Part shown: piece by piece, positions 820-17,103 of the stretch
Layout of the letters: the number at the start of each line of letters is the position of its first letter
How positions within the stretch are numbered: the first letter of the stretch is position 1
Source: a virus
Taxonomy: Duplodnaviria; Heunggongvirae; Uroviricota; Caudoviricetes
Virus record (IMG/VR): IMGVR_UViG_2896595138_000005
Location: 1 to 20,870 of that record
DNA: 20,870 nucleotides
Reading direction: 5' to 3' (one strand)
Translations under genes and position numbers: made by a program
Notes under the pieces: model-generated
The model's database searches: none
What the model was told of the DNA's origin: nothing
The model's input: only the letters and a program-made list of their open reading frames with translations

Positions 820-862
820 AAAAAGAACAAATGGTAGTGTCCGCTATTGCCAGTACACCTCA
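1..862 (+). mobile_element. IS3-family insertion sequence (IS600-like), partial right-hand copy; window begins inside the element
   Basis: 1..862 matches 17139..18000 of the complete copy base for base where compared; the two diverge immediately after ...CCAGTACACCTCA. Confidence 0.85.
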
Positions 863-982
863 AAGTGCAAGCTGGTTCTTTAGTTTTGTTACTTCTTCAA
901 GTTCAGTGAACACCCCGGACTTAATTAAAGCGTTACGAGCGATTGTCTCTTTCATTCTCGTTGTTAAGCGGATTGATGACAT
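860..982 (-). pseudogene. truncated small ORF whose stop codon is supplied by the IS terminus
   Basis: GAGG-type RBS 7 nt upstream of the ATG at 982; the reading frame ends at TGA 862..860, which is the terminal TCA of the IS on the other strand. Confidence 0.25.
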
Positions 983-2459: not shown

Positions 2460-2594
2460 TCAGCAGCTCGGATAAGAGCGGAAGTGCTGACGAACATGTT
2501 CGAGCTCACCGAAACGTATGCGGCAGTAACTGCGCACATAAACCGGCTTGTCGTGTTCGTAGATGAAGTCATCGCGATTAACATCGTGAGCCAT
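2460..2594 (-). CDS. small hypothetical protein (44 aa) not in the supplied ORF track
   Basis: Hand-translated from the minus strand as MAHDVNRDDFIYEHDKPVYVRSYCRIRFGELEHVRQHFRSYPSC; AGGAG RBS 7 nt upstream of the ATG at 2594; terminator follows 16 nt after the stop. Confidence 0.45.
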   Translation of the reverse strand: MAHDVNRDDFIYEHDKPVYVRSYCRIRFGELEHVRQHFRSYPSC

Positions 2595-2715
2595 AGCTTT
2601 TCTCCTGTTTTTGTATACAGCCTGTTTACCCGAACAGGTTGTAGTTTGTTGGGAGAACCGCTATCCTTGGCTTGCGGTTGCCAAGGGTGTAGCGGTAGGT
2701 AATCCTCCATACACT

Positions 2716-2768: not shown

Positions 2769-3300
2769 ATTCTTTTGTTCCGCCATCAATCATCGCAAAA
2801 GATTCCACAATCAGACTGATACGCTTGGCTTCATCTTTTGTCAGGTCGCGAGGCAGGTTGCCAATGGTGACGATAAGATCTCCGCGCAATGGAATCGGCA
2901 GTTCAAATGTTTTTACACCAACCTGTACGTCAGCTACCGCCTTCTTCTTAGGTGCCATCTTTTTACGCTCCTTTTTTTTATTTACATCACCAACTGACAC
3001 ATTAATCTCACCATTCTGGTAGGAGATAAATTTATCAATAGCACTTTGCATTCGGCTTTTGTATGCCTGCAAAGATGATTCAGAGGGTTTGCTTTCTGCT
3101 GAGTCTGCGTACGAACTTGCTAAGTTGGCAACGCTATAATCACGGATATCGGCATCGGTGAAATCCGCCCCAAGAACAGTAAGAAGGCGCAGGGAAGAGT
3201 CACGGAGATTGCGGGCTGTAGCATCATTGACGATACCAAGCTCAGGAAGCATCTGTAAGAAGTCCTGAAATGCTTTGATGGTGTAGCTTTTGGTTTGCAT
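2767..3300 (-). CDS. hypothetical protein (177 aa) in the cI-to-OL cargo position
   Basis: Long ORF with a lysine-rich central linker (NKKKERKKMAPKKK); no recognisable family; flanked by its own 5' hairpin and 3' terminator. Confidence 0.6.
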   Translation of the reverse strand: MQTKSYTIKAFQDFLQMLPELGIVNDATARNLRDSSLRLLTVLGADFTDADIRDYSVANLASSYADSAESKPSESSLQAYKSRMQSAIDKFISYQNGEINVSVGDVNKKKERKKMAPKKKAVADVQVGVKTFELPIPLRGDLIVTIGNLPRDLTKDEAKRISLIVESFAMIDGGTKE

Positions 3301-3867: not shown

Positions 3868-4575
3868 TTACCAGCTATGCGATGACCAGAATACTCTGCC
3901 AATAATCCTTACGGTTTTATGAAATTCATCTCTATCCATTACTTCATCCGGGTACTCTTCGCGATTTATTGATCTGATTATCACCGATGTAGGAGTGGCG
4001 ATTAATGTTTTTACTCGCAACAAATCAGACTGGCAAATAGCGTAGGTTTTACCATCTCTGATGGTGGTATCTTGTGTGTTAACACCAACAACATCGCCAT
4101 CGTGAAGAGTTGGTTCCATGCTTTGACCTGTTACCCTTACCAGCTTGGCAGAACTTTCAGTTACCCCCATCTTTTTCAGATAGTACTTTCTGAAAACCAA
4201 AGAGAACTCTGATGATTCTTCTATCTCGCAGCTACCGCTTCCAGCCGAAAGCGAAACGTTAAGAAGAGGCAATGCGACAAACTCGTCATCGTTTTTTTTA
4301 ATGTCTTCCCATACCACAGCTTTTAAAGATGACTCACGGATATTGGATGGTTCTTCATGTGTACCATCCCTCATTTCACCAATACCAGAACTAAGCCATT
4401 CAGGGCGTACTTTTAAAGCATTAGCTAACTCAACCATCTTGCGAGATCCGTTTGTTTTACCGGATGACATCTTCTGTATGGCTGGCTGAGATATTCCAAC
4501 CATGTCCGCAAGCTGTGATTGCGACACCCCTGCCGATCTCATGGCTGCATTTAGTCTTTCTGCGAATGTTTTCAT
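3868..4575 (-). CDS. cI: CI-type prophage repressor (N-terminal HTH, C-terminal S24 LexA-like autopeptidase domain)
   Basis: HTH-like segment QSQLADMVGISQPAIQKM and a C-terminal S24-like region (VTGQSMEPTLHDGDVV, LRVKTL). Start placed at MKTFAERL (4575) rather than the first in-frame ATG (4605) because an operator site lies between them. Confidence 0.8.
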   Translation of the reverse strand: MKTFAERLNAAMRSAGVSQSQLADMVGISQPAIQKMSSGKTNGSRKMVELANALKVRPEWLSSGIGEMRDGTHEEPSNIRESSLKAVVWEDIKKNDDEFVALPLLNVSLSAGSGSCEIEESSEFSLVFRKYYLKKMGVTESSAKLVRVTGQSMEPTLHDGDVVGVNTQDTTIRDGKTYAICQSDLLRVKTLIATPTSVIIRSINREEYPDEVMDRDEFHKTVRIIGRVFWSSHSW

Positions 4576-4587
4576 ATCCACAAATCT

Positions 4588-4662
4588 ATAACTACGGTTA
4601 TCCAAAGTAAAATAATAAAGGTTATTGCTATCTTTTATAACTTGGGTTATCCTTGGTTATAA
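4588..4662. promoter_or_regulatory. OR operator cluster with divergent pRM/pR
   Basis: ATAACTACGGTTAT (4588..4601), ATAAAGGTTAT (4615..4625), ATAACTTGGGTTAT (4637..4650) and GGTTATAA (4655..4662), between the divergent cI and cro starts. Confidence 0.6.
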
Positions 4663-4686
4663 GCAATGGCTGAAAGAGGTATGCTC

Positions 4687-4911
4687 ATGAATTTAGTAAT
4701 TCAACGAGCCTTGAAGATTGTCGGTAGTCAAAAGCGGCTTGCCGACAAGTGTGGTGTAACGCAGCCAGCAGTACACAAATGGCTGAAAGGCGGGCAGGTT
4801 TCTCCAGAGAAAGTTACCGCCATCGTTAACGCCACTGGAGGGCAGATCAAGGCTTACGAAATTCGCCCAGATTTACCACACCTGTTTCCAAAACCGAATC
4901 AGGCAGCATAA
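4687..4911 (+). CDS. cro: Cro-like HTH repressor
   Basis: Small HTH protein (KRLADKCGVTQPAVHKWLKG) divergent from cI; AGAGGT RBS favours the ATG at 4687 over the ORF-track start at 4666. Confidence 0.7.
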   Translation: MNLVIQRALKIVGSQKRLADKCGVTQPAVHKWLKGGQVSPEKVTAIVNATGGQIKAYEIRPDLPHLFPKPNQAA

Positions 4912-4949
4912 GTAACACCGCTATTTTCACAATGGGCATTCGTCCTACG

Positions 4950-4964
4950 TCGCTGACAAAGCGA
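4950..4964 (+). promoter_or_regulatory. nutR boxB-like hairpin
   Basis: TCGCTGACAAAGCGA, same GACAA pentaloop as nutL, between cro and cII; a boxA-like CGCTATTTTCACAA lies about 25 nt upstream. Confidence 0.5.
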
Positions 4965-5049
4965 GCCCCAAGATATCTGACCAACTAAGGCCATATGCGT
5001 TTCCATGCATACCTTTCAACTAACTATTCACTATTGGAAATCTTAAGAA

Positions 5050-5349
5050 ATGGAACAAACAAGTTACAGCAAACTATCACAGCGCGACGTTGATCGCGCA
5101 GAAACAGATTTACTTATCAACCTGTCAACGCTTACACAGCGCGGTCTGGCAAAGATGATTGGCTGCCATGAATCGAAGATCAGTCGTACCGACTGGCGGT
5201 TTATTGCTTCGGTCTTGTGTGCTTTCGGAATGGCATCAGACATCAGTCCGATTAGCAGGGCTTTTAAGTATGCGCTTGATGGACTCACCAATAAAAAACG
5301 CCCGGTGTGCAAAACCGAGCGTTCTGAACAAATCCAGATGGAATTTTAA
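5050..5349 (+). CDS. cII: CII-like transcriptional activator
   Basis: 99-aa HTH protein (TQRGLAKMIGCHESKISR) in the canonical position after cro and nutR. Confidence 0.65.
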   Translation: MEQTSYSKLSQRDVDRAETDLLINLSTLTQRGLAKMIGCHESKISRTDWRFIASVLCAFGMASDISPISRAFKYALDGLTNKKRPVCKTERSEQIQMEF

Positions 5350-5371
5350 CAACATCCAACGAGGTAATTAT

Positions 5372-5643
5372 ATGCGAAACAAAGGCTTTAATCCACCTGA
5401 TACACACAAAGAAGCTAAGCGTTTGCGCTTCCTTCGTTCCATTGATGAAAGAACTCAAATCTCTTTTGTGAAAGTTGCCAGAACTGAGCTTCTGAAAGCT
5501 GAGGCGAGGGCGTTGCTCCCGCCTCTACCAAAAGAGGAGGGATATACGTTCATTCCAAACGCATTTCTGGAAAAGCTGCTCAAAGAAGACATATCCGTAA
5601 GTCAGTTTAACGATGTTCTTAAGGTCTTTCGTCAAGGCAGGTA
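5372..5643 (+). CDS. hypothetical protein between cII and the replication genes
   Basis: 90 aa from an internal ATG with a GAGG RBS, inside the longer ORF-track frame 5159..5644. Confidence 0.4.
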
Positions 5644-5646
5644 GTG

Positions 5647-6531
5647 ATGAGCAATACAGCAAAAATCTACGATTTCAGCGCCGCACACGAGCGCAGGAGC
5701 AACAGGATGGAGAACCAGAAAACTGGTTACATTCCGTTGTACCGGAGCATTCTGAAACAGTCATGGGCGAAAGATGTTTATCTTCGCACCCTGTGGGAAA
5801 ACCTTCTCCTGAATGCTGCCAGAAAGCCATACAAAGCGAATTTCAAAGGTCATGAATGGCATGTGCAACCCGGTCAACTGGTTGTGACAGCAGCTGATTT
5901 AGGTCTTCAGTTATGCGACAGGCATGGCAAGCCAGCAAGCCGTGATCAGGTTGAGCGGATGCTTCAGGTTTTTGTGAAAGAGGGGATGATCTCCATTGAT
6001 GGAGAGAAGCAAAAAGGTCGTGTGATCACCATCACAAATTACCATGAATATGCTCAAAAAATGGACAATTCACCCGCACATGAAGCCGCACAAACAACCG
6101 CACATCATGAACAAGAAGGTATTAACAAGAATATAAATAATATCTCTAATACTGACGTATTAGAGAGTGCCACAGCAGACAAAAAGTCTGACAAGAAAAA
6201 ACCTTCCGTTAGCTGTCAGGATGTTGTCGATGCTTACCACGAAATCCTTCCTGAAGCGCCAAGAATCCGCGCACTGAATGACAAGCGTAAAAACCAGATC
6301 CGAACGTTCTGGCGCAAAGCCGGAGTGATAACCCGCCAGCTTGACGGGCATGGGTTCACGATGCAGGACTGGAGAAATTATTTGAGCTACGTAGGCGAAA
6401 ATTGCCGATGGATGTTCGAAGAGCGCCCAAACCATCAGCGCGGAACCGTCTGGCACAAAAAGGGATTTGATTACCTGCTTAACGATAATACCTACCTGAA
6501 AGTTCGTGAGGGTGAACACGATGACCGATAA
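5647..6531 (+). CDS. phage replication initiation protein (O-like)
   Basis: 294 aa in the O position, ending 11 nt inside the start of the helicase gene; assignment is by position and general resemblance. Confidence 0.6.
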   Translation: MSNTAKIYDFSAAHERRSNRMENQKTGYIPLYRSILKQSWAKDVYLRTLWENLLLNAARKPYKANFKGHEWHVQPGQLVVTAADLGLQLCDRHGKPASRDQVERMLQVFVKEGMISIDGEKQKGRVITITNYHEYAQKMDNSPAHEAAQTTAHHEQEGINKNINNISNTDVLESATADKKSDKKKPSVSCQDVVDAYHEILPEAPRIRALNDKRKNQIRTFWRKAGVITRQLDGHGFTMQDWRNYLSYVGENCRWMFEERPNHQRGTVWHKKGFDYLLNDNTYLKVREGEHDDR

Positions 6532-7957
6532 TTTTTATGCGCCGCCCCATAGCATCGAGGCAGAGCAGGCGGTGATTGGTGGATTGCTTCTGGATGATGA
6601 CAGCAGTGAGCGCGTCCAGAAGGTTCTTGCGATGCTGAAGCCTGACTCATTTTACAGCCGGCCACACAAAATCCTTTTCGAAGAAATAACCAGAATGCAC
6701 CGGGAGCAAAAGCCAGTAGATGGCCTGACGCTTTTCGATGAACTGGAGCGTAAATCGTTAACGGCGTCTGTTGGCGGTTTTGCTTATATCGCTGAGATCG
6801 CAAAGAACACGCCAAGCGCCGCAAACATCGTTGCCTATGCAATGCAGGTTCGCGAAACCGCAATGGAACGCTACGCCATCAACCGCATGACTGAAGCGAC
6901 GGAATTGCTCTATTCCCGCAACGGAATGACTGCAACGCAGAAGTACGAAGCTATTCAGGCGATTTTCACGCAACTGACAGACCATGCAAAAACCGGATCA
7001 CGTCGCGGCCTTCGCTCATTTGGTGAGGTCATGGAAGACTGGGTTAGCGACCTTGAGAAGCGTTTTGACCCGTCAGGCGAACAACGAGGAATGAGCACAG
7101 GGATCCCATCGCTGGACAGGATGCTGTCACCGAAAGGTCTGGTGAAAGGCTCTCTGTTTGTCATTGGCGCTCGCCCTAAGATGGGGAAAACGACGCTATA
7201 CAGCCAGATGGCAATCAACTGCGCAGTGCATGAGAAAAAGCCCGCTCTGATGTTCAGCCTTGAAATGCCAGGTGATCAGATACTGGAAAAACTGGTAGGG
7301 CAGAAGTCTGGTGTTAACCCGAATATTTTTTACCTTCCGGCGACAAATGACGCCGATGACGGCTATCAGGGTGATTACGATGGTGACTTCAACAGGGCGA
7401 TCGAAACAGCCAATCGCTTGAGTGAAATCGACCTGCTTTACATCGACGACACGCCGGGATTATCTCTGGCTCAAATCGTCAGCGAAAGCCGTCGAATCAA
7501 GCGAGAAAAAGGATGTGTTGGCATGATTCTGGTCGATTACCTGACACTAATGACCGCTGAAAAGGCCGATCGCAACGACCTTGCCTACGGCATGATCACC
7601 AAAGGACTGAAGAACCTTGCCAAAGAGCTTGATTGCGTTGTTGTGCTTCTGACGCAGCTTAACCGCGCACTGGAAAGCCGAACCAATAAACGCCCATTAC
7701 CAAGTGACTCACGAGATACAGGGCAGATTGAACAGGATTGCGATTATTGGGTGGGGATCCATCGTGAAGGTGCTTTTGATGACAGTGTTCCACCTGGTGA
7801 AACCGAACTAATCCTTCGTCTCAATCGTCATGGCAATACCGGCACGGTGTATTGCATTCAGGCAAATGGAGCTATTTATGACACAGACCAACAGTCTGCT
7901 GAAATGCGCCGCCGTGAACGCGAGGAACCGCAGTCCAAGAAGAAAGGAGGATTCTGA
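6521..7957 (+). CDS. replicative DNA helicase, DnaB family (P-equivalent)
   Basis: DnaB N-terminal signature PPHSIEAEQAVIGGLLLD and Walker A GARPKMGKT; GAGGGTG RBS before the ATG at 6521. Confidence 0.85.
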   Translation: MTDNFYAPPHSIEAEQAVIGGLLLDDDSSERVQKVLAMLKPDSFYSRPHKILFEEITRMHREQKPVDGLTLFDELERKSLTASVGGFAYIAEIAKNTPSAANIVAYAMQVRETAMERYAINRMTEATELLYSRNGMTATQKYEAIQAIFTQLTDHAKTGSRRGLRSFGEVMEDWVSDLEKRFDPSGEQRGMSTGIPSLDRMLSPKGLVKGSLFVIGARPKMGKTTLYSQMAINCAVHEKKPALMFSLEMPGDQILEKLVGQKSGVNPNIFYLPATNDADDGYQGDYDGDFNRAIETANRLSEIDLLYIDDTPGLSLAQIVSESRRIKREKGCVGMILVDYLTLMTAEKADRNDLAYGMITKGLKNLAKELDCVVVLLTQLNRALESRTNKRPLPSDSRDTGQIEQDCDYWVGIHREGAFDDSVPPGETELILRLNRHGNTGTVYCIQANGAIYDTDQQSAEMRRREREEPQSKKKGGF

Positions 7958-7985
7958 TGACCATCTACATCACTGAGCTAATAAC

Positions 7986-8017
7986 AGGCCTGCTGGTAAT
8001 CGCAGGCCTTTTTATTT
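7986..8017 (+). terminator. rho-independent terminator (tR2-like) between helicase and ninB
   Basis: AGGCCTGC-loop-GCAGGCCT stem followed by TTTTTATTT. Confidence 0.6.
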
Positions 8018-8032
8018 GGGGAGAGGGAAGTC

Positions 8033-8473
8033 ATGAAAAAACTAACCTTTGAAATTCGATCTCCAGCACATCAGCAAAACGCTATTCACGCGGTACAGCA
8101 AATTCTTCCAGACCCAACCAAACCAATCGTAGTAACCATTCAGGAACGCAACCGCAGCTTAGACCAGAATCGAAAGCTTTGGGCTTGCCTTGGTGACGTC
8201 TCTCGTCAGGTTGAATGGCATGGTCGCTGGCTGGATGCAGAAAGCTGGAAGTGTGTGTTTACCGCGGCATTAAAGCAGCAGGACGTTGTTCCTAACCTTG
8301 CCGGGAATGGCTTTGTGGTAATAGGCCAGTCAACCAGCAGGATGCGTGTAAGCGAATTTGCGGAGTTATTAGAGCTTATACAGGCATTCGGTACAGAGCG
8401 TGGCGTTAAGTGGTCAGACGAAGCGCGACTGGCTCTGGAGTGGAAAGCGCGATGGGGAGATCGGGCTGCATGA
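8033..8473 (+). CDS. ninB: NinB recombination protein
   Basis: 146 aa with the characteristic N-terminus [21 protein letters not shown] and [10 protein letters not shown]. Confidence 0.8.
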
Positions 8474-9159
8474 CTATCAAATCAAATACGCCAGCACACG
8501 ACAAGGACTGCTGGCAAACGCCACTTTGGCTTTTTGATGCGCTGGATATTGAGTTTGGATTCTGGCTGGATTCGGCAGCGAGCGACAAAAATGCTCTGTG
8601 CGCTCACTGGCTAACTGAGGCCGACGACGCGCTCAATTCTGAGTGGGTAAGCCACAGTGCAATCTGGAATAACCCACCGTACAGCAATATCAGGCCGTGG
8701 GTGGAAAAAGCCGCTGAGCAGTGTATACAACAGCGACAGACGGTAGTTATGCTTGTGCCAGAGGATATGTCAGTCGGATGGTTCAGCAAGGCTCTGGAGA
8801 GTGTTGACGAAGTTCGCATCATCACTGATGGACGGATTAATTTTATCGAACCATCGACAGGGCTGGAGAAAAAGGGAAACAGTAAAGGCTCAATGCTGCT
8901 GATTTGGCGACCGTTCATCAGTCCCCGGCGAATGTTTACTACCGTATCCAAAGCGGCATTGATGGCGATCGGGCAGGGCGGCATGAGGCGACAGCGACGA
9001 AGTATTACCGACATAATCTGTGAAAACTGCAAATACCTTCCAACGAAACGCTCCAGAAATAAACGCAAGCCAATCCCAAAAGAATCTGACGTAAAAACCT
9101 TCAACTACACGGCTCACCTGTGGGATATCCGGTGGCTAAGACATCGTGCGAGGAAATGA
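8470..9159 (+). CDS. phage DNA N6-adenine methyltransferase (Dam type) with C-terminal basic extension
   Basis: NPPY catalytic motif; ATG at 8470 overlaps the ninB stop (ATGA); last ~60 residues are basic and not typical of the family. Confidence 0.7.
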
Positions 9160-9200: not shown

Positions 9201-9509
9201 TTAAACGAAGCGGATCTGGAGTTTTTTTCCAGTAGCGCGGGCGAATTTTTTTAGTGTGGCAAATGATGGGCCGCTGATACCTGATGCGAGATTACTTTCC
9301 ATTCTGGTGATCGCGGTCGCTTTTGTTCCCATTCGCTCGGCAACTTCAGCCTGAGTTAAGCCAGCTTCTTTGCGTGCTGCCAGCATTTCATCAAGCAGTG
9401 CGAATTCGTCAGCGATAGCGTCGTATTCTGCTTTAAAAGCCGGGTCTTCCATCCATTTGGCTGCCATTTCGTCGTGTGTCATGGTGGGGAGAGTGCGTTT
9501 ACCAGTCAT
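9201..9509 (-). CDS. HigA-like HTH antitoxin (XRE family)
   Basis: HTH segment LTQAEVAERMGTKATAITRME; sits downstream of and overlaps the toxin gene. Confidence 0.7.
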   Translation of the reverse strand: MTGKRTLPTMTHDEMAAKWMEDPAFKAEYDAIADEFALLDEMLAARKEAGLTQAEVAERMGTKATAITRMESNLASGISGPSFATLKKFARATGKKLQIRFV

Positions 9510-9828
9510 GCTTAACCTCCTTCATTCTGGTTTCAGCTTTCTTGCGTTCGGCTGGCGGTGTTTTCTGCGTTTTCTTTACAAAACTATGCAGCATGATGAT
9601 GCGTTTCCCTGTCAGAGTGCAGTAAAAAACACGCGCGATCCCATCGTTGCCTTTAATTCTGAGTTCGAAAAGTCCGTCACCAAAGGCGCTGGTGTGAGGT
9701 TCTCCGAGATTGCTGCCATATATCTTCATACGTTCAACGAGATGTTGGTATCGGGCACGCATACTCAATGGAAGCCGATCGACTTCCAGCCTTACATCTT
9801 CACTGTAGTATTCGATAGTGTAGTTCAT
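9499..9828 (-). CDS. HigB/RelE-ParE family toxin (Gp49-like)
   Basis: Conserved C-terminal pattern LHSFVKKTQKTPPAERKKAETRMKE; start uncertain, the frame opens at 9918. Confidence 0.65.
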   Translation of the reverse strand: MNYTIEYYSEDVRLEVDRLPLSMRARYQHLVERMKIYGSNLGEPHTSAFGDGLFELRIKGNDGIARVFYCTLTGKRIIMLHSFVKKTQKTPPAERKKAETRMKEVKHDW

Positions 9829-9949
9829 AGGTATCAACATAACAAAATCGTTATATGCATTCAAGGCCTGTAGTTGACGACAACACATATCCGGGCTATA
9901 TTCCTCATACGCCAGCAAAATCTGGCGTCGGGATTGAGACCCCGGATGT

Positions 9950-10420
9950 TTACGGAGCGATATGAGACGCGCCCGCGTCTTTTTTCATATCGTTTGCACA
10001 GTCACATTCGCGATTTATGGTGGGCTGTGTGGGGGAGCCGAAACCGATAACCATTTCTTTGTTGAAGAGACAAAGCGAGCAGGCCAGTCCGATCGCGGTC
10101 CAACTGAGCCCCATTTCACGGGATTTTTCGGTAATACCATTCTCCCGATTGCTCCAGCGTTCCATAATCCAGTGGATCCACTCCTCCTGCTTAGGGAAGA
10201 GTAAAAACGGAATGGTCACCGGCAGGCCATAATCAATATTACGCGGGTCCGTTGTCATGCCCCAGCCGATAATGAACTGAGCCGGGTTGGTACGGTAAAA
10301 CTGTTTTAGTGCAGGCAATATTTCAGGATTCTGGCGAATGCGCTGTAGGCGTTCCATCCGCCATTCAAAAACCATCTGGTAATCAGGATGTTTAAAATCG
10401 AAGGGGAATGGTAACGGCAT
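9950..10420 (-). pseudogene. terminase large subunit, N-terminal fragment only
   Basis: Directly follows terS; only 156 codons where several hundred are expected; no portal, head or tail genes follow. Confidence 0.6.
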
Positions 10421-10422
10421 AC

Positions 10423-10977
10423 TTAGCCCATCATTTTTCTATACACCTCTGCGGCCTGCTCAGGCGTTAATTTGGTAATTTCTGTTCTGACTGGTCCTCC
10501 GTCAGCGCCAGTCACTTCATTTTTGACGTTGTCTTTAAACGCCTGAACAGAAACATGACGCCCAAGCAACTCAAGGTTTTTAACCTTATCAGGCCATTTG
10601 ATTTTCTTCAGAAGTGCGGCGCTATCTGCGGATACCATCTCCACGACATCCATTCCTGATAGCGTTGTGCGCCATACCTTAGGCCAGTCTTTAATGGGCT
10701 TTAGCTCACCGTTTTGCAGGAGAATGTCGAGCACATCCATCTGGTCGATTTCAACCAATCTACGAAGAACATAGGCGGCATCTATACCCGTCTGCTCAAC
10801 GCGGGCGGATTTAAGTTCAGCAACGAATTTTTGAACATTAACATTTGCTAATAATCGAGATGCCTGCTCATTGGCGGTCTTCTCGCTGTAGCCCGCCCTG
10901 ATAGCTGCCTGTGTGCCGTTCAGATCTTTCAGGTACTCACGGGCAAACAGCTCTTGTTTGTCGGTGAGCTTTGCCAT
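10423..10977 (-). CDS. terminase small subunit (P27 family)
   Basis: N-terminus [35 protein letters not shown] is the family signature. Confidence 0.8.
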
Positions 10978-11078
10978 TATTTGTGCTCCGTTTATCCGTT
11001 AAAAGGGATATCAGTTAAGTTATCCCGTGTAGGGTATAAGCCATTATCAAGCCCACCAGTAGATGGGCTTTGTAATGG

Positions 11079-11336
11079 CTACTTCGCTTTTGCTTCCGCT
11101 CGCTTACGCCGGCGCTCTTCTTTCCTCTCGGCTTTTGCCATGTCCATGAATGTCTGCATGATCGAGTTCCGCATCATGTAGCTAACAAAGTGATGATTGA
11201 CACAGCCGTTGAGGCGCAGCTGCTCGCCAAACTCATCCACCGAGGCCAATGCTTCCATCATGCCCTTCTCGCCTTTCATGAACTCTGAGAAGTCGCGCCC
11301 CGCTCTGGAGGCGCATTCAATGACACGATCACTCAT
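11079..11336 (-). CDS. hypothetical protein with basic C-terminal tail
   Basis: 85 aa ending KAERKEERRRKRAEAKAK; start overlaps the stop of the KilA-N gene (ATGA). Confidence 0.45.
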   Translation of the reverse strand: MSDRVIECASRAGRDFSEFMKGEKGMMEALASVDEFGEQLRLNGCVNHHFVSYMMRNSIMQTFMDMAKAERKEERRRKRAEAKAK

Positions 11337-11830
11337 CCCGGAAGCCCGGGGATCGTTATCTGCAGCTGGTTAGCCAGGGAGTTAATCTCAGCGACCAACA
11401 CTGGCTTCGTATAGCGCCATGCCGCCAGCCCTTGTCCACAGAAGCTCGCCATATCTTTTTTCTGATCAAACTCATGACACTTCATATTGAGCTGCGCACT
11501 TAAGCTGTTGCGATGCTGAAGTTCTCCGGTGAAGTAGTCATCCAGGACTTTATAGGCTGCATATTTAAATCCGGGGTTTAGCCATGCTGCATAATCATAA
11601 GCAACAAACTTCCCGCCATATGTTCCACCGTGTACACCGCGCTCAGTAAAAACCACAGATTCGTGGTTTTTCTCCAGCTCGGCTAAGAACTCTTTGGTCT
11701 GCTTGTTTCGCAGGTAGTGGTACGGAGATTCAGATTCACTTTTACCACTGGCTTTCCACATATCAGTGAGGCAGATCATTCCTGATTCATCAACACGGAT
11801 CGGTGTATTAAAAAGCGTGATTGCTTTCAT
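11333..11830 (-). CDS. KilA-N domain protein
   Basis: N-terminal KilA-N-like segment (ITLFNTPIRVDESGMICLTDMWKASGK). Confidence 0.6.
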   Translation of the reverse strand: MKAITLFNTPIRVDESGMICLTDMWKASGKSESESPYHYLRNKQTKEFLAELEKNHESVVFTERGVHGGTYGGKFVAYDYAAWLNPGFKYAAYKVLDDYFTGELQHRNSLSAQLNMKCHEFDQKKDMASFCGQGLAAWRYTKPVLVAEINSLANQLQITIPGLPG

Positions 11831-11977
11831 GGCGTCTTTACCTTTTAGAAAGATGAGCCTGTTCGCACAGAAAAGCCGTCCCCGAGATGGTCGCCACCAT
11901 ATACGGCAATTCTCAGGCTCAGCTTTCTGAAAGACTCGGGGTTTATATGCGCTGCGATGCGCGGTTTACTGCGGACA

Positions 11978-12003
11978 TATAAAAGCCCCGCAAGTGCGAG
12001 GCT
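11978..12003 (-). terminator. candidate rho-independent terminator after Rz
   Basis: GC-rich imperfect stem (AGCCTCGCA / TGCGGGGCT) followed by TTTTAT on the minus strand. Confidence 0.35.
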
Positions 12004-12035
12004 CATTAAATGGACTTTGTGATTTGCAAAAAAAT

Positions 12036-12503
12036 TTATTTCAGGCACTGAGTCCTGATGTACTCCTGAAGCATTCTCAATGCTGTCTGGTCGCTGATGA
12101 TTCCGTCCCGGATACCGAGAACGTTTCGTCCAGCAACTGGAGAGAGTTCGACGGTGGCATCATTGCCCATGCCGGAGGCGCTGGAGGTTTCGGCTGAGGA
12201 TGGCACAGGGCATTTTCCTTTGACGAGCACCCGACCACCATTATCAAGCTTGCGCCGAAGAGCATCATTTTCAGCTTTCGCATTGGCTAACTCCTTCGTG
12301 TATTTAGCATCGAGTGCATCAGCAGCACGCTGGCGCTGCTGCATGTCAGTAATGGTTGCGTTCGCCAGCTTCAGTTCTCTTGCGTTTTTGTCGCGCTGCT
12401 CTTTGTAGGTAATGGCGTTATCACGGTAATGATTAACAGCCCATGACAGGCGGACGATGATGCAGATAACCAGAGCGGAGATAATCGCGGTGACTCTGCT
12501 CAT
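12036..12503 (-). CDS. Rz: Rz i-spanin
   Basis: N-terminus [17 protein letters not shown] with a transmembrane segment, then an [19 protein letters not shown] region. Confidence 0.75.
12077..12283 (-). CDS. Rz1: Rz1 o-spanin lipoprotein, embedded in Rz in another frame
   Basis: Lipobox VVGC after a signal peptide, then a proline-rich segment (PKPPAPPAW). Confidence 0.7.
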
Positions 12504-12996
12504 TGCTGCCCCACAAACAGACTTCACGCTCAATCTCACGACGGGTCATCAGCCCTTTCCATTGCTTACCGCCAGCATATGTCCAGCGACGTAGCTGGTC
12601 ACATGCGCCTTTGATATCGCCCTGGTTTATTTTGCGAAGAAGCGTCGATGTTCTGAAATTGCCAGCGCCCACGTTGTAAACGAACGAGTAAAGAGCGCCG
12701 CGCGTTGTTTCCGGTATATCGACTTTGATGTACGGGTTAATTTGTCTGGCGACAGTGGCAAGGTCTTTATTCAGGAGAGCTTTGCATTCTGCTTCGGTAT
12801 ACGTTTTACCAGGCATGATGTCTTTTCCGGTGTGTCCGTGACATACAGTCCATACACCAATGATATCTTTGTATGGTATGTAGCTGACACCTTCCAGACC
12901 ATCGTTACCACCTGGGCCAGTGATTAACACAGATGCTATAGCAACAGCCCCGCCACCAATAGCAACTGCAACAGCCTTGCGTAATGATGGCGACAT
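12433..12996 (-). CDS. R: SAR endolysin (phage 21 R-type lysozyme)
   Basis: N-terminal Gly/Ala-rich signal-anchor ([20 protein letters not shown]); start overlaps the holin stop (ATGA); 3' end overlaps the Rz start by about 70 bp. Confidence 0.8.
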
Positions 12997-13211
12997 TATT
13001 CACCTCTCGCAGCCTTACGCTTGTCTTCTCTTAATTTGAAATACAGATTCGTCAGATAAGTCAGAAGCCCCAGAAGCAGACTTCCCAGCACACCAATCGC
13101 AGCCCACTGTGATGGACTGACCTGATCCAACCACTGCAAAAACCAGTAGCCGGCACTGCCGGCGGAGGTGCCGTAGGCAATGCCCGTTGAAATTTTGTCC
13201 ATGGATTTCAT
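12996..13211 (-). CDS. S: class II holin (phage 21 S-type pinholin)
   Basis: Dual-start MKSMDK motif and two transmembrane segments; start at 13211 inside the longer ORF-track frame. Confidence 0.75.
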
Positions 13212-13327
13212 AGCCTCACCTCCGCAAATAACGGATGGCGTAGTTCTTATATTGGGAAGGGAAAAAAAAGGCCGCAGCGTAACTGTCACTGATGAATTCA
13301 GGATAGCCAGTGGCTACGGCTCAGTTA

Positions 13328-13403
13328 TGGTGCTGGTTAACGGACTTGAACCGCTACCCATTCGCTTACAAGGCGACTGCTCTACCATTAGAGCTAAACC
13401 AGC
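13328..13403 (-). tRNA. tRNA-like gene, anticodon UGU (Thr) by hand folding
   Basis: 76 nt with 7-bp acceptor stem, GCTC/GAGC D-stem, CTTGTAA anticodon loop, TTCAAGT T-loop and encoded CCA. Confidence 0.5.
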
Positions 13404-13408
13404 ATATT

Positions 13409-13483
13409 TGGCGGGACAGCGTGGACTCGAACCACGATAAGAAGGTTAACAGCCTTCCGTAATGACCTTTATACGACTGACCC
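13409..13483 (-). tRNA. tRNA-like gene, anticodon GUU (Asn) by hand folding
   Basis: 75 nt with perfect GAAGG/CCTTC anticodon stem, CTGTTAA loop, CGTGG-TTCGAGT-CCACG T-arm and encoded CCA; one mismatch each in acceptor and D stems. Confidence 0.45.
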
Positions 13484-13672
13484 AAATAAAAAATCCCGAA
13501 AGCAGGCTCTATTCCTATGTGCTCTCGAGTTTATGATGCGCATGTCAGTGCGCTTAGCGAAAAACGCCGTAAACCCTCGCCCGACAGGGCGGGGAGCAGT
13601 CACAACTTAAAGATGAGGTGGGTAAAAAACCGAAAGAATGTGAACGGATATAAACCTGCCATTCTTGAGTCA

Positions 13673-13701
13673 AATTTACCCAACTTTATTCAAAAAGTCA
13701 A
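13673..13701 (-). promoter_or_regulatory. late promoter pR' (lambda-like)
   Basis: Minus-strand TTGACT, 17-nt spacer, TAAATT, within TTGACTTTTTGAATAAAGTTGGGTAAATTTGACTCAA. Confidence 0.6.
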
Positions 13702-13743
13702 TATCATGCCGTTAAGATGTTGCCATCCATGGCAATCATGCCG

Positions 13744-14367
13744 CTAACGTGTGACCGCATTCAAAATGTTGTCTGCGATTGACTCTTCTTTGTGGCATTG
13801 CACCACCAGAGCGTCATACAGCGGCTTAACAGTGCGTGACCATGTGGGTTGGGTGAGGTTTGGGATTAGCATCGTTACAGCGCGATATGCTGCACTTGCT
13901 GGCATCCTTGAATAGCCGACACCTTTGCATCTTCCGCACTCTTTCTCGACAACTCTCCCCCACTGCTCTGTTTTGGCTATATCAACTGCCAGACCTGTTC
14001 CGTGGCAATCTCTGCATCTTGCGCCCGGCGTCGCGGCACTACGGCAATAATCCGCATAAGCGAATGTTGCGAGCACTTGCAGTACCTTTGCCTTAGTATT
14101 TCCTTCGAGCTTTGCCACACCACGGTATTTCCCCGATACCTTGTGTGCAAATTGCATCAGATAGTTGATAGCCTTTTGTTTGTCGTTCTGGCTGAGTTCA
14201 TGCTTACCGCAAAATGCAGCCATTCCGAATCCGGCTTGTGATTGCGCCATCCCCATAGCAGCCATCACATCAGTACCGGAAAGAGAGTCAGAAGCCGTAG
14301 CCCGTGGTGAGTCGCTCATCATCGGGCTTTTTAGCGAATGAAATTTAGCTACGCTTTCGAGTCTCAT
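13744..14367 (-). CDS. Q: late antiterminator Q (lambda Q type)
   Basis: 207 aa with a CxxC...CxxC zinc-binding motif (CRDCHGTG...CGRCKG); recalled as near-identical to lambda Q. Confidence 0.8.
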   Translation of the reverse strand: MRLESVAKFHSLKSPMMSDSPRATASDSLSGTDVMAAMGMAQSQAGFGMAAFCGKHELSQNDKQKAINYLMQFAHKVSGKYRGVAKLEGNTKAKVLQVLATFAYADYCRSAATPGARCRDCHGTGLAVDIAKTEQWGRVVEKECGRCKGVGYSRMPASAAYRAVTMLIPNLTQPTWSRTVKPLYDALVVQCHKEESIADNILNAVTR

Positions 14368-14552
14368 CGTCTTCCCCTCTTGCCCTGTTTGACCATCAGG
14401 ACGCCGTTAACTATTACGTGACGCTCGCCTTTGCTGTCTCGGTTGTACTTGAGCACTGTTCCTCTTGCGCAGGAAAGCATCCTCGCCACTTCGGTCTGAT
14501 TGCCTCGTGTCTGGATAAGAAGCTCTGGTATCGTTTGAATTGTGGCGTTCAT
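14364..14552 (-). CDS. ninH: NinH-like small DNA-binding protein
   Basis: Segment GNQTEVARMLSCARGTV resembles lambda NinH. Confidence 0.6.
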   Translation of the reverse strand: MNATIQTIPELLIQTRGNQTEVARMLSCARGTVLKYNRDSKGERHVIVNGVLMVKQGKRGRR

Positions 14553-14911
14553 ACGTTCTCCAGTTCGGTGATTTTTATTCCAAGCCTTCCGCCTGGTACT
14601 TTCACACCACGAATTACGCGAATGTCATCGAATTGCTCGTCGTCTTCCGCAAATCCGGCGTGGATAAGAGAGTCGAGTAGCCCCTTCAGGATGTTGTCGA
14701 GGTCGCGGCGGCGGGAGTCTGGAACGTCTGCGATGACTTTGATGCGGAGTCGTGCTTTGGTGAAAATATCTAACTTGAGTTGGCGGATGATTTGCTGAAC
14801 GTCTTTTCGGTATTTCTGGCCTTTATAGCTGATGTAGTATTGGCTTCCCCGTCTTCGCCAGTAGGTGTTCAGCGACGGTGGGTATGGAAGCACAAACTGA
14901 TATTCGTTCAT
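14549..14911 (-). CDS. rusA: RusA-family Holliday junction resolvase
   Basis: 120 aa with the RRRDLDN motif characteristic of RusA. Confidence 0.8.
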   Translation of the reverse strand: MNEYQFVLPYPPSLNTYWRRRGSQYYISYKGQKYRKDVQQIIRQLKLDIFTKARLRIKVIADVPDSRRRDLDNILKGLLDSLIHAGFAEDDEQFDDIRVIRGVKVPGGRLGIKITELENV

Positions 14912-15198
14912 GGCTTAATCTTCCCCTCCTTCAGCAGTATCGCCTGCGTCCTGATCACGCCTTCGAGGTGGTAAAGTCTGGCGTCTTTGTTGTCGAGGTT
15001 ATGGGTGCGTCGGTCGATTTCATCGTGACACGCGCTACAAGCCCATGCGCCGATCAGGTCGTCAGGCTTCATTCCCGTTCCGCAAATTCCAGCCATCCGG
15101 TAATGTGCCAGAACTGTAGTTTCAGGATTGCCATTGCATACGCCGTAAATACGTACCTGGCATTCTCTGCCGCGCGCTTCTTTGCGTAAGTTAGCCAT
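14908..15198 (-). CDS. YbcO-like protein (DUF1364)
   Basis: 96 aa, cysteine- and histidine-rich, immediately upstream of rusA as in DLP12. Confidence 0.55.
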   Translation of the reverse strand: MANLRKEARGRECQVRIYGVCNGNPETTVLAHYRMAGICGTGMKPDDLIGAWACSACHDEIDRRTHNLDNKDARLYHLEGVIRTQAILLKEGKIKP

Positions 15199-15926
15199 TA
15201 AGCAGCCTCCCCTGTTACTTTCAGCATTCCGTTATAGAGCAGCTTTCTGGTCAGCCACTGTTGGCCACGCCCGGTGATTTTTGTGGTGAACGATATCTGT
15301 ATTCCGTGATTTGTGTTGACTGCTGTTTCTTTCACTGTGAAATAGCCGCGATCCATATATTCCTGCATTGGCACATTGCGCCGGGAACCTGAAGCAATAA
15401 GGATTTTGTGATCGCGCATCCACGCAAACAGTTTGTTTGGACCAATTCCAACAACCTTTGCAAAGTTTCCAATCAAAATTCCGCTGGCCTCGCTAACGCG
15501 ATCGGCAAACTCAACTTTAGGTGCTGCGAGAGCAAGCTGTTTCTCCAGTTCAGCCTTCTGGTCTTCAAGGTCGGCCGCAAGGCGCAATGCCTCAGAAAAG
15601 GTTTGTGGGATTTTCGCGGTTGCCCCTTCAAGCTCTCGCCAACGGTCAACAAGACGAGCGGTGAATTCCGGCGACAACTGGGCAACGACAATAATGCTGT
15701 CGCGCTTACCTTGTTCGCCTTCGAAGACGTAATGCTCGTACTGAACATTGAACCCTAAGTTATTGATTCTTTCGGAAACCTCAAATTGAGGATGCCGGAT
15801 AACACCATTTTTAGCCAGCGTTTCGATGGTACGTTTCACATTGTCATGACGCTTACCCACCAACTCAGCGATTTCAATGCTGGTCATTTTGATGGCGTTG
15901 CTATTTATCAGCTCGTTCATTGTCAT
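15198..15926 (-). CDS. antirepressor (Rha-like N-terminus, KilAC-type C-terminus)
   Basis: N-terminal TSIEIAELVGKRHDNVKRTIETL; two-domain layout typical of phage Ant proteins. Confidence 0.65.
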   Translation of the reverse strand: MTMNELINSNAIKMTSIEIAELVGKRHDNVKRTIETLAKNGVIRHPQFEVSERINNLGFNVQYEHYVFEGEQGKRDSIIVVAQLSPEFTARLVDRWRELEGATAKIPQTFSEALRLAADLEDQKAELEKQLALAAPKVEFADRVSEASGILIGNFAKVVGIGPNKLFAWMRDHKILIASGSRRNVPMQEYMDRGYFTVKETAVNTNHGIQISFTTKITGRGQQWLTRKLLYNGMLKVTGEAA

Positions 15927-15951
15927 GTCCTCTCATATTGAAAATTCAGCA

Positions 15952-15975
15952 ATAAAAAACCCAGCCGAAGCTGGG
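15952..15975 (-). terminator. rho-independent terminator between the ORF6N gene and the antirepressor gene
   Basis: Minus-strand CCCAGC-TTCG-GCTGGG followed by TTTTTTATT. Confidence 0.55.
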
Positions 15976-15994
15976 TCGTTGCGTTGGCAATCTG

Positions 15995-16672
15995 TCAGTA
16001 GTGATGTAGTGAAGGAGGTAATTCTTTGTTCTTAAGTCTTACCCATGCAGAAAGATTCGTTGGTCCGTCTGGCTCATTAATATCAACATCTCGTGTGTGA
16101 TTGATTAAAACGTCTCTCGCCATTCCGATAACATACGAGAACTCATGACCGTAGTCGTGGCATCTGCCGGAATAGTTAGACTGAATTTGTCTTAGCGCCG
16201 GATACAGTTCGCGGAATAATGCCTGTGAGCGGTTGGCATAATCCCACAACCATACCAGACTGTTTGCATCTTTTGCAGAAAGCTCGCTGGTTTTCTTCTC
16301 GTGATGACCTGCGCTTTTCGAAGTCTGGCTGAAATAGCAGTCTTCCAGTTTTTCGAACACGTCCCATGCCTGATCGGTTTCGAGCATCTTCGCGTGACGG
16401 GCTGCGCCTCGTTCTGTCCAGAGGATGAGCGAGCGGGCATTTTTACCAACTAACCCGATTGTTTCGGGTCTGTTCTTAAACTCGCGTAATTCGTTTTTTT
16501 CAATTTTAAAGTAATGCTTTCCTACCACGAATCGCATCGTGTTGTTCAGAAAATTATCAGAAATGTTTTTGATTTTTGTTCCGTATAACTGCGCCAGAAG
16601 TTCAGTTGTAATAACGGGGATCTGGTTGTGGGTGATTGCAGGAAGAGTGTCGACAGAAATTTGAGTGAGCAT
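15995..16672 (-). CDS. ORF6N-domain phage protein
   Basis: Start assigned to MLTQ (GGAG RBS 8 nt upstream); the longer ORF-track frame runs into the IS; the IS left end lies about 65 bp upstream of the assigned start. Confidence 0.5.
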
Positions 16673-16800
16673 AACGATAACTCCGTACATTTGGTCATTA
16701 TCGCCACCTTCTGGTCTCAATAATCTGGTGGCGAGCTGAGGTAGCCTGAGTTTAACGGACACTCCTTCCTGAAATAGAATGGCATCAGAAGGAGCTAATA

Positions 16801-17103
16801 ATGAGCAGAAAAACCCAACGTTACTCTAAAGAGTTCAAAGCCGAAGCTGTCAGAACGGTTCTTGAAAATCAACTTTCGATCAGTGAAGGCGCTTCCCGAT
16901 TATCCCTTCCTGAAGGCACTTTAGGACAATGGGTTACCGCCGCCAGAAAAGAGCTCGGTACTCCTGGTTCCCGCACGGTGGCTGAACTGGAATCTGAAAT
17001 TCTGCAACTGCGTAAGGCGTTAAATGAAGCTCGCCTTGAGCGAGATATATTAAAAAAAGCAACAGCGTATTTTGCACAGGAGTCGCTGAAAAATACGCGT
17101 TAA
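16801..17103 (+). CDS. IS3-family transposase OrfA (HTH, leucine zipper)
   Basis: 100 aa; the A7G frameshift site lies near its 3' end. Confidence 0.85.

Follow-up and report, generated by a model that had tools for sequence, protein, structure and literature searches.

Proteins of the Bro network are plentiful in prophages and satellites, and little is understood about them. The domains of the network comprise KilA-N, Bro-N, Rha, ANT/KilAC, ORF11CD3, P63C, P22_AR, and T5orf172 (PMC10111431). The pair of genes considered here has already been described as hkbK/hkbL of phage HK620, where the two genes overlap by 4 nt and are situated after Rz in the late operon; our literature search found no functional study of that pair. 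Comparable arrangements occur in the post-Rz slot of HK97 (gp73/HK97p61) and mEp234 (gp58/gp59), in which a tight junction (TGAnnATG) joins a small gene to a KilA-N gene, and in the same slot epsilon34 gp68 and HK106 gp64 (PHROG 4284) are annotated "GIY-YIG nuclease family protein." More remote parallels are offered by P1 KilA, by the abortive-infection protein BstA, and by the polylysogen induction modules, which are reported to consist of a transcription factor and a small protein that inactivates a phage repressor (PMC10432266).

Our locus is contained within a window of 20,870 nt, the whole stretch of viral DNA that was analyzed (IMG/VR record IMGVR_UViG_2896595138_000005), and it does lie between Rz and terS, as a preliminary description had stated. 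The two genes, taken from the open reading frame list, and the features that surround them are as follows.

13744..14367, Q, upstream in transcription order
no coordinates, tRNA-Asn/Thr, upstream of the cassette and listed between Q and the holin
12996..13289, P21-type holin, upstream in transcription order
12433..12996, lysozyme, upstream in transcription order
12036..12539, minus strand, Rz spanin, last gene of the lysis cassette and upstream neighbor
12077..12283, Rz1, embedded in Rz
11983..12004, minus strand, terminator-like hairpin with a T-run, directly after Rz
11831..11982, minus strand, leader before the cassette, ending in the conserved ribosome-binding region ...CTAAAAGGTAAAGACGCC-ATG
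11333..11830, minus strand, KilA-N gene (gene 1; 165 aa, ATG start), counterpart of HK620 hkbK
11333..11336, minus strand, ATGA overlap of the gene 1 stop and the gene 2 start, presumed termination-reinitiation site
11079..11336, minus strand, small gene (gene 2; 85 aa, ATG start), counterpart of HK620 hkbL
11039..11080, minus strand, strong 17-bp hairpin from the small-gene stop codon (-36.6 kcal/mol, z = -5.9)
10423..10977, minus strand, terS, terminase small subunit (Terminase_2, 131.6 bits), downstream neighbor

The cassette and its leader share 94.7% nucleotide identity with those of HK620, and the encoded proteins are 99 to 100% identical; HK620 differs in that hkbL and terS are separated by two additional small genes, hkbM (for a DUF2560 protein) and hkbN, and its Rz, terS, and terL genes are its own, unlike those found here. 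Profile searches, which had been proposed for both proteins, upheld the KilA-N assignment of the first: residues 7 to 101 of the 165-aa protein match the KilA-N Pfam model (PF04383; 58.5 bits, cut-off 23.8; profile positions 6 to 106 of 107), and an ORF11CD3 domain lies C-terminal to it (PF10549; 50.5 bits, cut-off 25; residues 109 to 161 on profile positions 1 to 54 of 54). Among the PHROG HMMs, phrog_129, "transcriptional regulator," was matched (E = 1e-61), and the ORF11CD3 domain additionally matches the Rha-like PHROG 518. Versions with 93 to 100% identity are present in HK620, in Stx phages, and in Salmonella and Shigella phages. A two-domain architecture of this kind is typical of the Bro network and, judged from this combination of domains, the 165-aa protein is a member. 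Domains of the network that are reshuffled in relatives were found in KilA-N+ORF11CD3, KilA-N+P63C, Rha, and Rha+ANT proteins alike. The protein is predicted to be DNA binding and antirepressor-like, a prediction that draws on the immI-like Arc/Ant neighborhoods of its relatives.

The product of the second gene had been described as having no recognizable family. This holds for Pfam and NCBIfam, where no model scored above threshold, but the 85-aa protein belongs to PHROG 875, a family of unknown function that it matches over its full length (E = 6.1e-54; residues 1 to 85 on profile positions 1 to 85 of 85), and it contains a helical domain homologous to the N terminus of PHROG 4284 (hhalign probability 98.4%, E = 5e-15, 70 aligned columns; hmmscan E = 2.6e-6). 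It shares that domain without being a member of PHROG 4284, because it carries a basic 20-residue helix and has no T5orf172 or MUG113 match, whereas the remote homologues P0132 and P0135 do have one. Helices are predicted at residues 3 to 20, 26 to 42, and 48 to 84, and the AF2 model has a pLDDT of 92. The highly basic tail noted earlier was readily confirmed (10 K/R in the final 20 residues, pI 11.0); residues 1 to 65 are acidic (pI 5.2). Binding of DNA or RNA by the tail would be a guess from its composition, the helical domain itself being acidic. Foldseek searches yielded nothing meaningful in the PDB (best E = 1.2, to designed helical bundles) or in BFVD (best E = 0.19), all matches of the protein profile to PDB sequences had E values above 0.5, and no PADLOC match was obtained. 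A candidate zinc or metal site formed by C8, C45, H48, and H49, which are invariant in the close family, was dropped, as these residues are not kept in remote homologues: C8 is missing from P0122 and from every T5orf172 fusion, and C45 and H48 are missing from P0135.

That ATGA at 11333 to 11336 is common to both genes was correctly noted in the preliminary description, and the same -4 junction was present at 78 of 80 IMG/VR loci; the distance to the upstream partner was -8, -4, or +2 nt in every context examined. The small ORF lacks a Shine-Dalgarno sequence (anti-SD duplex, -2.8 kcal/mol; background mean, -2.4 kcal/mol), which fits translation by termination-reinitiation at the AUGA, and genes 1 and 2 would then be translationally coupled. 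Pairwise dN/dS values for the small ORF ranged from 0.03 to 0.32 among pairs with measurable dS; these values, together with the shared junction and the presence of both genes in 389 of 5,426 complete E. coli genomes, place the ORF beyond chance, and by such comparisons it is a real gene under purifying selection. Scanned by simple consensus matching, which would overlook weak or non-sigma-70 promoters, the minus-strand interval from Rz to the KilA-N gene yielded no sigma-70-like promoter, and expression of the pair is probably confined to the late phase.

The closest relatives of the flanks carry, in place of the whole KilA-N/small-gene cassette, a Rha cassette that includes an ATGA-coupled 70-aa ORF (phrog_4439). 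Identity to these relatives is 99.5% as far as position 11077 and 99.3% from position 11826 onward, so that the mosaic breakpoints fall five bases within the KilA-N coding sequence upstream (11826) and at 11077/11078 downstream; relative to the Rha and 70-aa-ORF cassette, the KilA-N/small-gene cassette is swapped precisely from start codon to stop codon. The 70-aa ORF and the 85-aa protein have an ASR-GR-F motif in common, and homology between them was considered and rejected (BLASTP E = 3.1). The leader and ribosome-binding site are common to three types of cassette, namely, KilA-N, Rha, and T5orf172 fusion, and a rho-independent terminator is annotated at the corresponding post-Rz place in epsilon34 and HK106. 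The hairpin at 11039 to 11080, which has a weak T-run (UUAUACCC), is a feature of the slot's downstream flank and not of this cassette, since the Rha cassette of the relatives carries an identical one. GC-rich hairpins also follow the small-gene stop codon in E. coli, Scandinavium, Raoultella, and Klebsiella, with stem-preserving changes and at differing genome positions too; the small-gene versions at loci L089 and L095 have no good hairpin after the stop, and no known RNA family was detected by Rfam between 10900 and 12100. The term "moron" that had been applied to the pair is apt to the extent that the cassette is inserted between conserved genes and is missing from close relatives; it is less apt in that the site is an exchange slot with common flanks and that no promoter of the cassette's own was found.

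The two genes occur together in approximately 7% of the complete E. coli genomes, and a KilA-N gene lies directly upstream of the small gene at all 80 IMG/VR loci, which differ in Rz (42 to 100% identity), in lysozyme family, and in terS. The 85-aa frame, the loss of which from carriers of the KilA-N gene would have counted against the earlier reading, is kept by practically every close relative with this KilA-N gene. Farther afield, the family was sampled through a genome contig search (7 loci) and an exhaustive HMM search (22 representative clusters); it is narrow, and its named sources are Enterobacterales throughout. Among the contexts examined, from Escherichia, Salmonella, Klebsiella, Enterobacter, Rouxiella, Raoultella, Trabulsiella, and Scandinavium, the small gene was always directly 3' of a Bro-network gene and was never found alone. 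Its partners have four architectures: KilA-N+ORF11CD3, as here; KilA-N+P63C, in HK97, mEp234, HK022, one further E. coli prophage, and Scandinavium, Raoultella, and Trabulsiella genomes; Rha (L108); and Rha+ANT (L111). Three genome positions are represented, these being the post-lysis slot, the tail module, and immI-like Arc/Ant regions. In HK97, a viable phage, the small ORF is frameshifted, and in phage pPE4 it is truncated; the KilA-N genes remain present in both, and the small gene is intact in HK620 and mEp234. The mEp234 protein is 96% identical to the 85-aa protein, although the KilA-N domains of the two partners are only 22% identical and the mEp234 and HK97 partners end in P63C. Distant KilA-N+ORF11CD3 genes, D3 orf11 and ST104 orf45, lack the small gene, as do some KilA-N+P63C genes; two ORFs adjacent to the SPN3UB KilA-N+P63C gene were inspected as candidate 3' homologues and proved unrelated. 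The post-lysis slot of epsilon34, HK106, and L115 is filled by a T5orf172 fusion. Like our cassette, epsilon34 gp68 and HK106 gp64 have the common leader and ribosome-binding site, and they show homology to the 85-aa protein over roughly their first 70 residues, but each is a single gene in which a T5orf172/MUG113 domain replaces the basic tail, with no adjoining KilA-N gene. P0132, which combines the helical domain with T5orf172, adjoins a KilA-N+P63C gene.

We suggest that the pair is a Bro-network regulatory cassette, late transcribed, dispensable, and mobile, whose small protein serves as a generic accessory factor, a reading to which we would assign about an even chance. The cassette occupies an exchange slot of the lambdoid late operon, which lies between the post-Rz terminator and terS, and transcription would occur late, from pR', by Q-modified polymerase that passes this terminator. 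Synthesis of the small protein would be tied to, and proportional to, translation of the Bro protein, and both would act in the same pathway, in all likelihood one of DNA-directed regulation or of antirepression, with coresident prophages, satellites, or the host as its target; contact with nucleic acid may be made by the basic helix of the small protein, and contact with protein by its acidic helical domain. The cassette would be unnecessary for lysis or packaging, and its apparent dispensability is suggested by the frameshift in HK97, the truncation in pPE4, and replacement of the entire cassette in the closest relatives. The "regulatory or host-interference module" envisaged in the preliminary description fits Bro-network membership and the immI-like (Arc/Ant) neighborhoods of relatives. 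A specific interface with the partner is unlikely, because a 96%-identical small protein follows divergent KilA-N and Rha-type partners, and "accessory factor" may amount to a common pathway only. There is a possible functional analogy with the polylysogen induction modules, which likewise combine genes for a DNA-binding protein and a small protein; the transcription factor of those modules reportedly activates the small gene, whereas the genes of our pair would be cotranscribed and translationally coupled (PMC10432266).

The alternative to which we give most weight, although it too is rather unlikely, is that the genes are functionally unrelated neighbors, the small gene being an accessory gene in its own right that happens to share a recombination hot spot with Bro genes; exchange in lambdoid mosaics takes place at the boundaries of genes. 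Near-identical small proteins after unrelated partners, breakpoints at start and stop codons, flanks common to several cassettes, and the existence of Bro genes that lack the small gene would all be accommodated by such independence, but it is difficult to reconcile with a small gene that has no Shine-Dalgarno sequence of its own and lies invariably 3' of a Bro gene across four architectures, three positions, and the eight genera examined, or with the fact that the remote T5orf172-fused homologue P0132 likewise adjoins a KilA-N+P63C gene. The homology between the helical domain and the N terminus of T5orf172 fusions found in the same slot raises the further idea of a leftover from a selfish homing-endonuclease cassette formerly present at this site, in which case the 85-aa protein would have been domesticated from the targeting domain of a T5orf172 (GIY-YIG-like) endonuclease. 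We judge this distinctly improbable, since relic status would not explain the strong purifying selection on the free-standing gene and its constant linkage to Bro genes, and no nuclease domain is left in the 85-aa protein. Even less probable is an RNA-binding role in which the arginine-rich C-terminal helix binds the hairpin at its own stop codon and controls read-through or stability into terS. The tail (AERKEERRRKRAEAKAK) presumably resembles the arginine-rich RNA-binding motifs of N-type antiterminators, a resemblance that we take as a lead only, and the stem of the GC-rich hairpin after the stop is kept in several versions despite changes; however, the identical hairpin accompanies the Rha cassette, which does not encode this protein, some small-gene versions (L089 and L095) have no good hairpin, and Q-modified polymerase should need no such help.

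Two further possibilities concern harm to the cell or to other phages. In a kill/antidote pair resembling toxin-antitoxin systems, the KilA-N protein would be toxic in the manner of P1 KilA and the small protein would neutralize or temper it. The genes are small and tightly coupled, as such a pair would be, and P1 KilA is 30% identical to the 165-aa protein over the KilA-N domain (residues 11 to 127, tblastn); this similarity is confined to the N-terminal domain and does not extend to the full length, and the C-terminal domain and genome position are different. Neither protein matched a toxin, antitoxin, or defense family in Pfam, NCBIfam, or PADLOC, and of the features that mark type II toxin-antitoxin systems, a family match and cognate, covarying partners, neither was found: antidotes are expected to be cognate, yet the same small protein accompanies four unrelated partner architectures, and KilA-N genes survive the frameshift in HK97 and the truncation in pPE4. 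We regard a kill/antidote function as improbable. Defense against other phages or superinfection exclusion, proposed by analogy with BstA, would be compatible with an accessory slot, with the KilA-N-like domain of BstA, with the implication of KilA-N proteins close to defense genes, and with a weak, domain-level match of the KilA-N protein to the PADLOC candidate PDC-S22. That match spans residues 60 to 90 only (PADLOC-DB v2), however, and no BstA model or established defense system was matched; BstA differs in its C-terminal domains and in genome position, the small protein has no PADLOC match, and with no promoter of its own found and a late-operon position preceded by a terminator, the pair would not be expected to be expressed in a lysogen. 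As with the endonuclease relic, the probability of a defensive role appears to us to be distinctly low.

In summary, the pair is the already known hkbK/hkbL of HK620 and is an ordinary, widespread accessory cassette of prophages. About 7% of complete E. coli genomes have it, as do numerous phages of the Stx, Salmonella, and Shigella groups; it is of little importance alone. The analysis has as by-products a clearly defined exchange slot, with the leader and the hairpin as common flanks, and a catalogued, uncharacterized small family that is tied to Bro-network genes and has a domain in common with T5orf172 fusions. The 85-aa partner is absent from the Pfam models listed for the network (PMC10111431). 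The slot carries alternative Bro-network cassettes; neither the constant position of the small protein after a Bro gene nor its fusion to T5orf172 was found in the literature searched. It is conceivable, although on balance unlikely, that PHROG 875 is a Bro-network module that has gone unrecognized, a small protein able to partner Bro-type antirepressor-like proteins of every kind (KilA-N, Rha, ANT, and others) and also to be fused to a T5orf172 nuclease-like domain, and that it might itself be the effector. It could then be, for instance, a small antirepressor or a nucleic-acid-binding adaptor that functions through its arginine-rich helix, and the Bro gene would supply targeting and translation-coupled dosing. 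If PHROG 875 is indeed such a module, the nonhomologous 70-aa ORF that is coupled to the Rha gene in the alternative cassette would point to a general design, "Bro gene plus coupled microprotein," that has been overlooked by annotation.

In the late operon of this prophage, a DNA-binding-type protein of the Bro network (domain-shuffling, antirepressor-like phage proteins) and a conserved small helical protein make up one exchangeable unit, and both ORFs are real genes. The preliminary description of two ORFs overlapping by ATGA between Rz and terS was accurate, and their surroundings, in transcription order, are as follows.

13744..14367: Q antiterminator, first in transcription order
After Q and before the holin: tRNA-Asn and tRNA-Thr
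12996..13289: P21-type holin
12433..12996, minus strand: lysozyme
12036..12539: Rz, with an embedded Rz1 lipoprotein frame
11983-12004: terminator-like hairpin, just after Rz
11333..11830, minus strand: KilA-N gene, 165 aa
11333-11336, minus strand: ATGA overlap, four bases common to the two ORFs, read on the coding strand
11079..11336, minus strand: small gene, 85 aa
11039-11080: 17-bp hairpin starting at the small-gene stop codon (-36.6 kcal/mol; z = -5.9)
10423..10977: terminase small subunit, after the two ORFs

The KilA-N identity proposed for the first protein was borne out by Pfam, with matches to KilA-N (58.5 bits; residues 7 to 101) and ORF11CD3 (50.5 bits; residues 109 to 161) that lie far over the cutoffs, as was the highly basic tail of the second protein (10 Lys/Arg in the last 20 residues; pI 11.0), residues 1 to 65 of which are acidic (pI 5.2). 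Over 1.2 kb, the region matches phage HK620 at 94.5% identity, with hkbK (KilA-N domain protein) and hkbL (hypothetical) as the counterparts, and Stx-converting and Salmonella phages at 88 to 92%; the part holding the two genes is about 96% identical to Shigella phage Ss-VASD. Part of the stretch from 11079 to 11830 is present in 525 of 5,426 complete E. coli genomes, and both genes are present in 389. As sequences, the genes are already known, since annotation covers them in the HK620 record and in hundreds of prophages, and the pair is an instance of the Bro-network accessory genes that lambdoid late operons are known to carry. Two more Bro-network genes lie in the same prophage fragment, upstream of YbcO, RusA, and Q: Rha plus ANT/KilAC (15198..15926, minus strand) and ORF6N plus P22_AR_C (15995..16762, minus strand).

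All 80 IMG/VR loci with the small gene have the 165-aa KilA-N gene directly upstream, and 78 keep the -4 overlap, while Rz (42 to 100% identity), the lysozyme family, and terS are free to vary; the pair thus travels together across mosaic backgrounds, and the 85-aa frame, on whose persistence in KilA-N-bearing relatives the preliminary description had staked its reading, is conserved in the close ones. The partner is not specifically the KilA-N protein of the window. A KilA-N plus P63C protein of 242 to 268 aa, its KilA-N domain only 22% identical to that of the window, precedes the small gene across a TGAnnATG junction in HK97, HK022, mEp234, an E. coli prophage (L105), and Scandinavium, Raoultella, and Trabulsiella genomes, and in mEp234 the small protein shares 96% identity with that of the window; a Rha-domain partner with a 4-nt overlap occurs in metagenomic contigs, and a Rha plus ANT partner with a 2-nt gap occurs in a Rouxiella genome. 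Nor is the pair confined to the position after Rz: Klebsiella phages, a metagenomic contig, and an Enterobacter prophage have it within the tail module or next to immI-like (Arc/Ant) genes. No such gene follows the distant KilA-N plus ORF11CD3 genes of Pseudomonas D3 (orf11), Salmonella ST104 (orf45), and a Vibrio phage, nor does a homologue follow the KilA-N plus P63C gene of Salmonella phage SPN3UB, whereas in the contexts examined the small gene was never without a Bro-type neighbor or a fused T5orf172 domain, so that the dependence is one-sided. The small gene is dispensable; it is frameshifted in HK97 and reduced to 22 codons in phage pPE4.

In the latter (vB_Apl-pPE4; L096, PP818812.1; 1971..2566), reported from Actinobacillus pleuropneumoniae, those codons follow a KilA-N product 100% identical to the E. 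coli-type protein of the window, an odd cassette for that host that may reflect recent transfer or a misassigned host. A recurrent remnant in several E. coli genomes is a 120-aa, N-terminally truncated KilA-N plus ORF11CD3 ORF joined directly to Rz, with no annotated small gene adjoining (E. coli B1W1, L104 1961..2323, minus strand; phage cdtI orf60, L100 1564..1926).

The second protein had been said to have no recognizable family, which holds for Pfam and NCBIfam, where it had no match, and fails for PHROGs, where it belongs, over its full length, to PHROG 875 (E value, 6e-54), annotated as function unknown. Its relatives form 138 clusters at an E value of ≤1e-3, the named ones nearly all from Enterobacterales (Escherichia, Enterobacter, Salmonella, Citrobacter, Klebsiella, and Rouxiella), and the family is narrow, since only 22 clusters emerged when 1.84 billion representative proteins were searched exhaustively by profile. 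Purifying selection is clear, with pairwise Nei-Gojobori dN/dS values of 0.03 to 0.32 across nine versions and dS up to saturation. A confident AlphaFold2 model (mean pLDDT, 92; 22 homologues) predicts helices at residues 3 to 20, 26 to 42, and 48 to 84, the exposed basic tail being the last third of helix 3; neither PDB nor BFVD yielded a significant relative by structure or by sequence. The motifs ECASRAGRDFSEF, GEK, EQLR, and GCVNHHFV are conserved. A possible Cys/His metal site was rejected because the residues are lost in remote homologues.

In the two most remote profile matches (P0132 and P0135), the helical domain of the small protein forms the N-terminal part and is fused to a T5orf172/MUG113 (GIY-YIG-like) domain, the architecture of PHROG 4284, and profile-profile comparison aligned residues 3 to 72 with this fusion family (98.4% probability; E value, 5e-15; 70 columns). 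In epsilon34 (gp68), HK106 (gp64), and a metagenomic phage, the slot from the lysis genes to terS is filled by the fusion gene, whose neighbor in another genome, within an Arc/Bro-N region, is a KilA-N plus P63C gene. The domains assigned to the Bro/KilA-N shuffling network include T5orf172 itself.

The closest flank relatives, E. coli RMDEC465 (L002; NZ_CM177019.1) and L003, are 99.5% identical to the window up to 11077 and 99.3% identical from 11826 on, and carry between these limits a 198-aa Rha-family gene; cassette exchange therefore spans start codon to stop codon. A leader ending in ...CTAAAAGGTAAAGACGCC-ATG is common to KilA-N, Rha, and T5orf172-fusion cassettes, and the 17-bp hairpin also follows the Rha cassette and is thus part of the slot, not of the cassette. 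Overlapping the Rha stop by ATGA is an unannotated 70-aa ORF (L002 2069..2281, minus strand) of PHROG 4439 (E value, 1e-34) with a basic stretch at its end and no detectable relatedness to the 85-aa protein. HK620 (L001) holds the hairpin-containing flank twice (2498..2604 and 2823..2859), on either side of the hkbL-hkbM spacer, which suggests a repeated linker between accessory cassettes. The lysozyme gene of the window has a one-base deletion at about 12512 relative to that of the 99%-identical L002, replacing the C terminus ...CLWGQQ-stop with a 22-residue extension and abolishing the usual 4-nt overlap with Rz.

The prophage is defective, unable to package DNA: terL (9950..10420, minus strand) retains about 156 N-terminal codons, and homology to the intact TerL of close relatives ends at 10033. 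Exactly at the junction of this stump with what looks like an inserted toxin-antitoxin pair, a HigB-like Gp49 (PF05973) gene and an HTH_3 gene overlapping by 11 bases (9201..9918, minus strand), is an Rfam match to the Hfq-binding sRNA isrK (9909..9985, plus strand; 70.6 bits; gathering score, 50). In PMC10111431, the isrK and C4 Rfam profiles are the means of finding relatives of two P4 elements, the immunity RNA CI and its target seqA. Either the prophage has been rearranged or it is made up of two prophage pieces: a plus-strand block (3868..9159) runs head-on into a minus-strand block (9950..16762; late and nin regions), the early region reading cI (3868..4605, minus strand) and then cro, cII, O, DnaB-like helicase, NinB, and Dam-NinE (plus strand). 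This last ORF (8410..9159, plus strand) joins a Dam methyltransferase domain (residues 24 to 189) to a complete NinE domain (192 to 249) and could have arisen by fusion or through loss of a stop codon. An IS3-family orfB end occurs in two direct, 99.9% identical copies (1..866 and 17139..18004, plus strand), the second also having its orfA (16801..17103) and lying near a phage integrase (18253..19200) and an IS66 transposase (19312..20490).

No sigma-70-like promoter was found between the post-Rz hairpin, whose place is annotated as a terminator in epsilon34 and HK106, and the KilA-N start; the pair would be transcribed from pR' by Q-modified polymerase reading through that terminator. The small ORF lacks a Shine-Dalgarno sequence (-2.8 kcal/mol; background, -2.4), and the junction suits termination-reinitiation, by which the small protein would be made in fixed proportion to the Bro protein; it would act as a generic accessory factor in the pathway of the latter. 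The most likely function, to which we give about an even chance as a whole and far less for any specific activity, is regulation or antirepression, with co-resident prophages, satellites, or the host as its target, a reading preferred because relatives of the pair sit in immI-like antirepressor regions.

Among rival readings, mere adjacency of the two genes through boundary recombination has the constancy of the pairing against it. A kill/antidote pair would sit well with tight coupling, but the near-identical small protein behind unrelated partners counts against a cognate toxin-antidote relation and against a partner-specific interface; neither protein matched toxin, antitoxin, or defence-system models, the last bearing also on BstA-like defence. 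Domain sharing with the fusions is what a relic of a T5orf172 homing-endonuclease cassette would display, and the basic tail might be an arginine-rich RNA-binding element acting on the adjacent hairpin. Regulation or antirepression remains our preferred reading. The searchable literature yielded no description of three things: that PHROG 875 is constantly paired with Bro-network genes, whatever their architecture; that it shares a domain with T5orf172 fusions; and that a parallel Rha plus PHROG 4439 cassette exists. All three are modest observations of a comparative-genomic kind.
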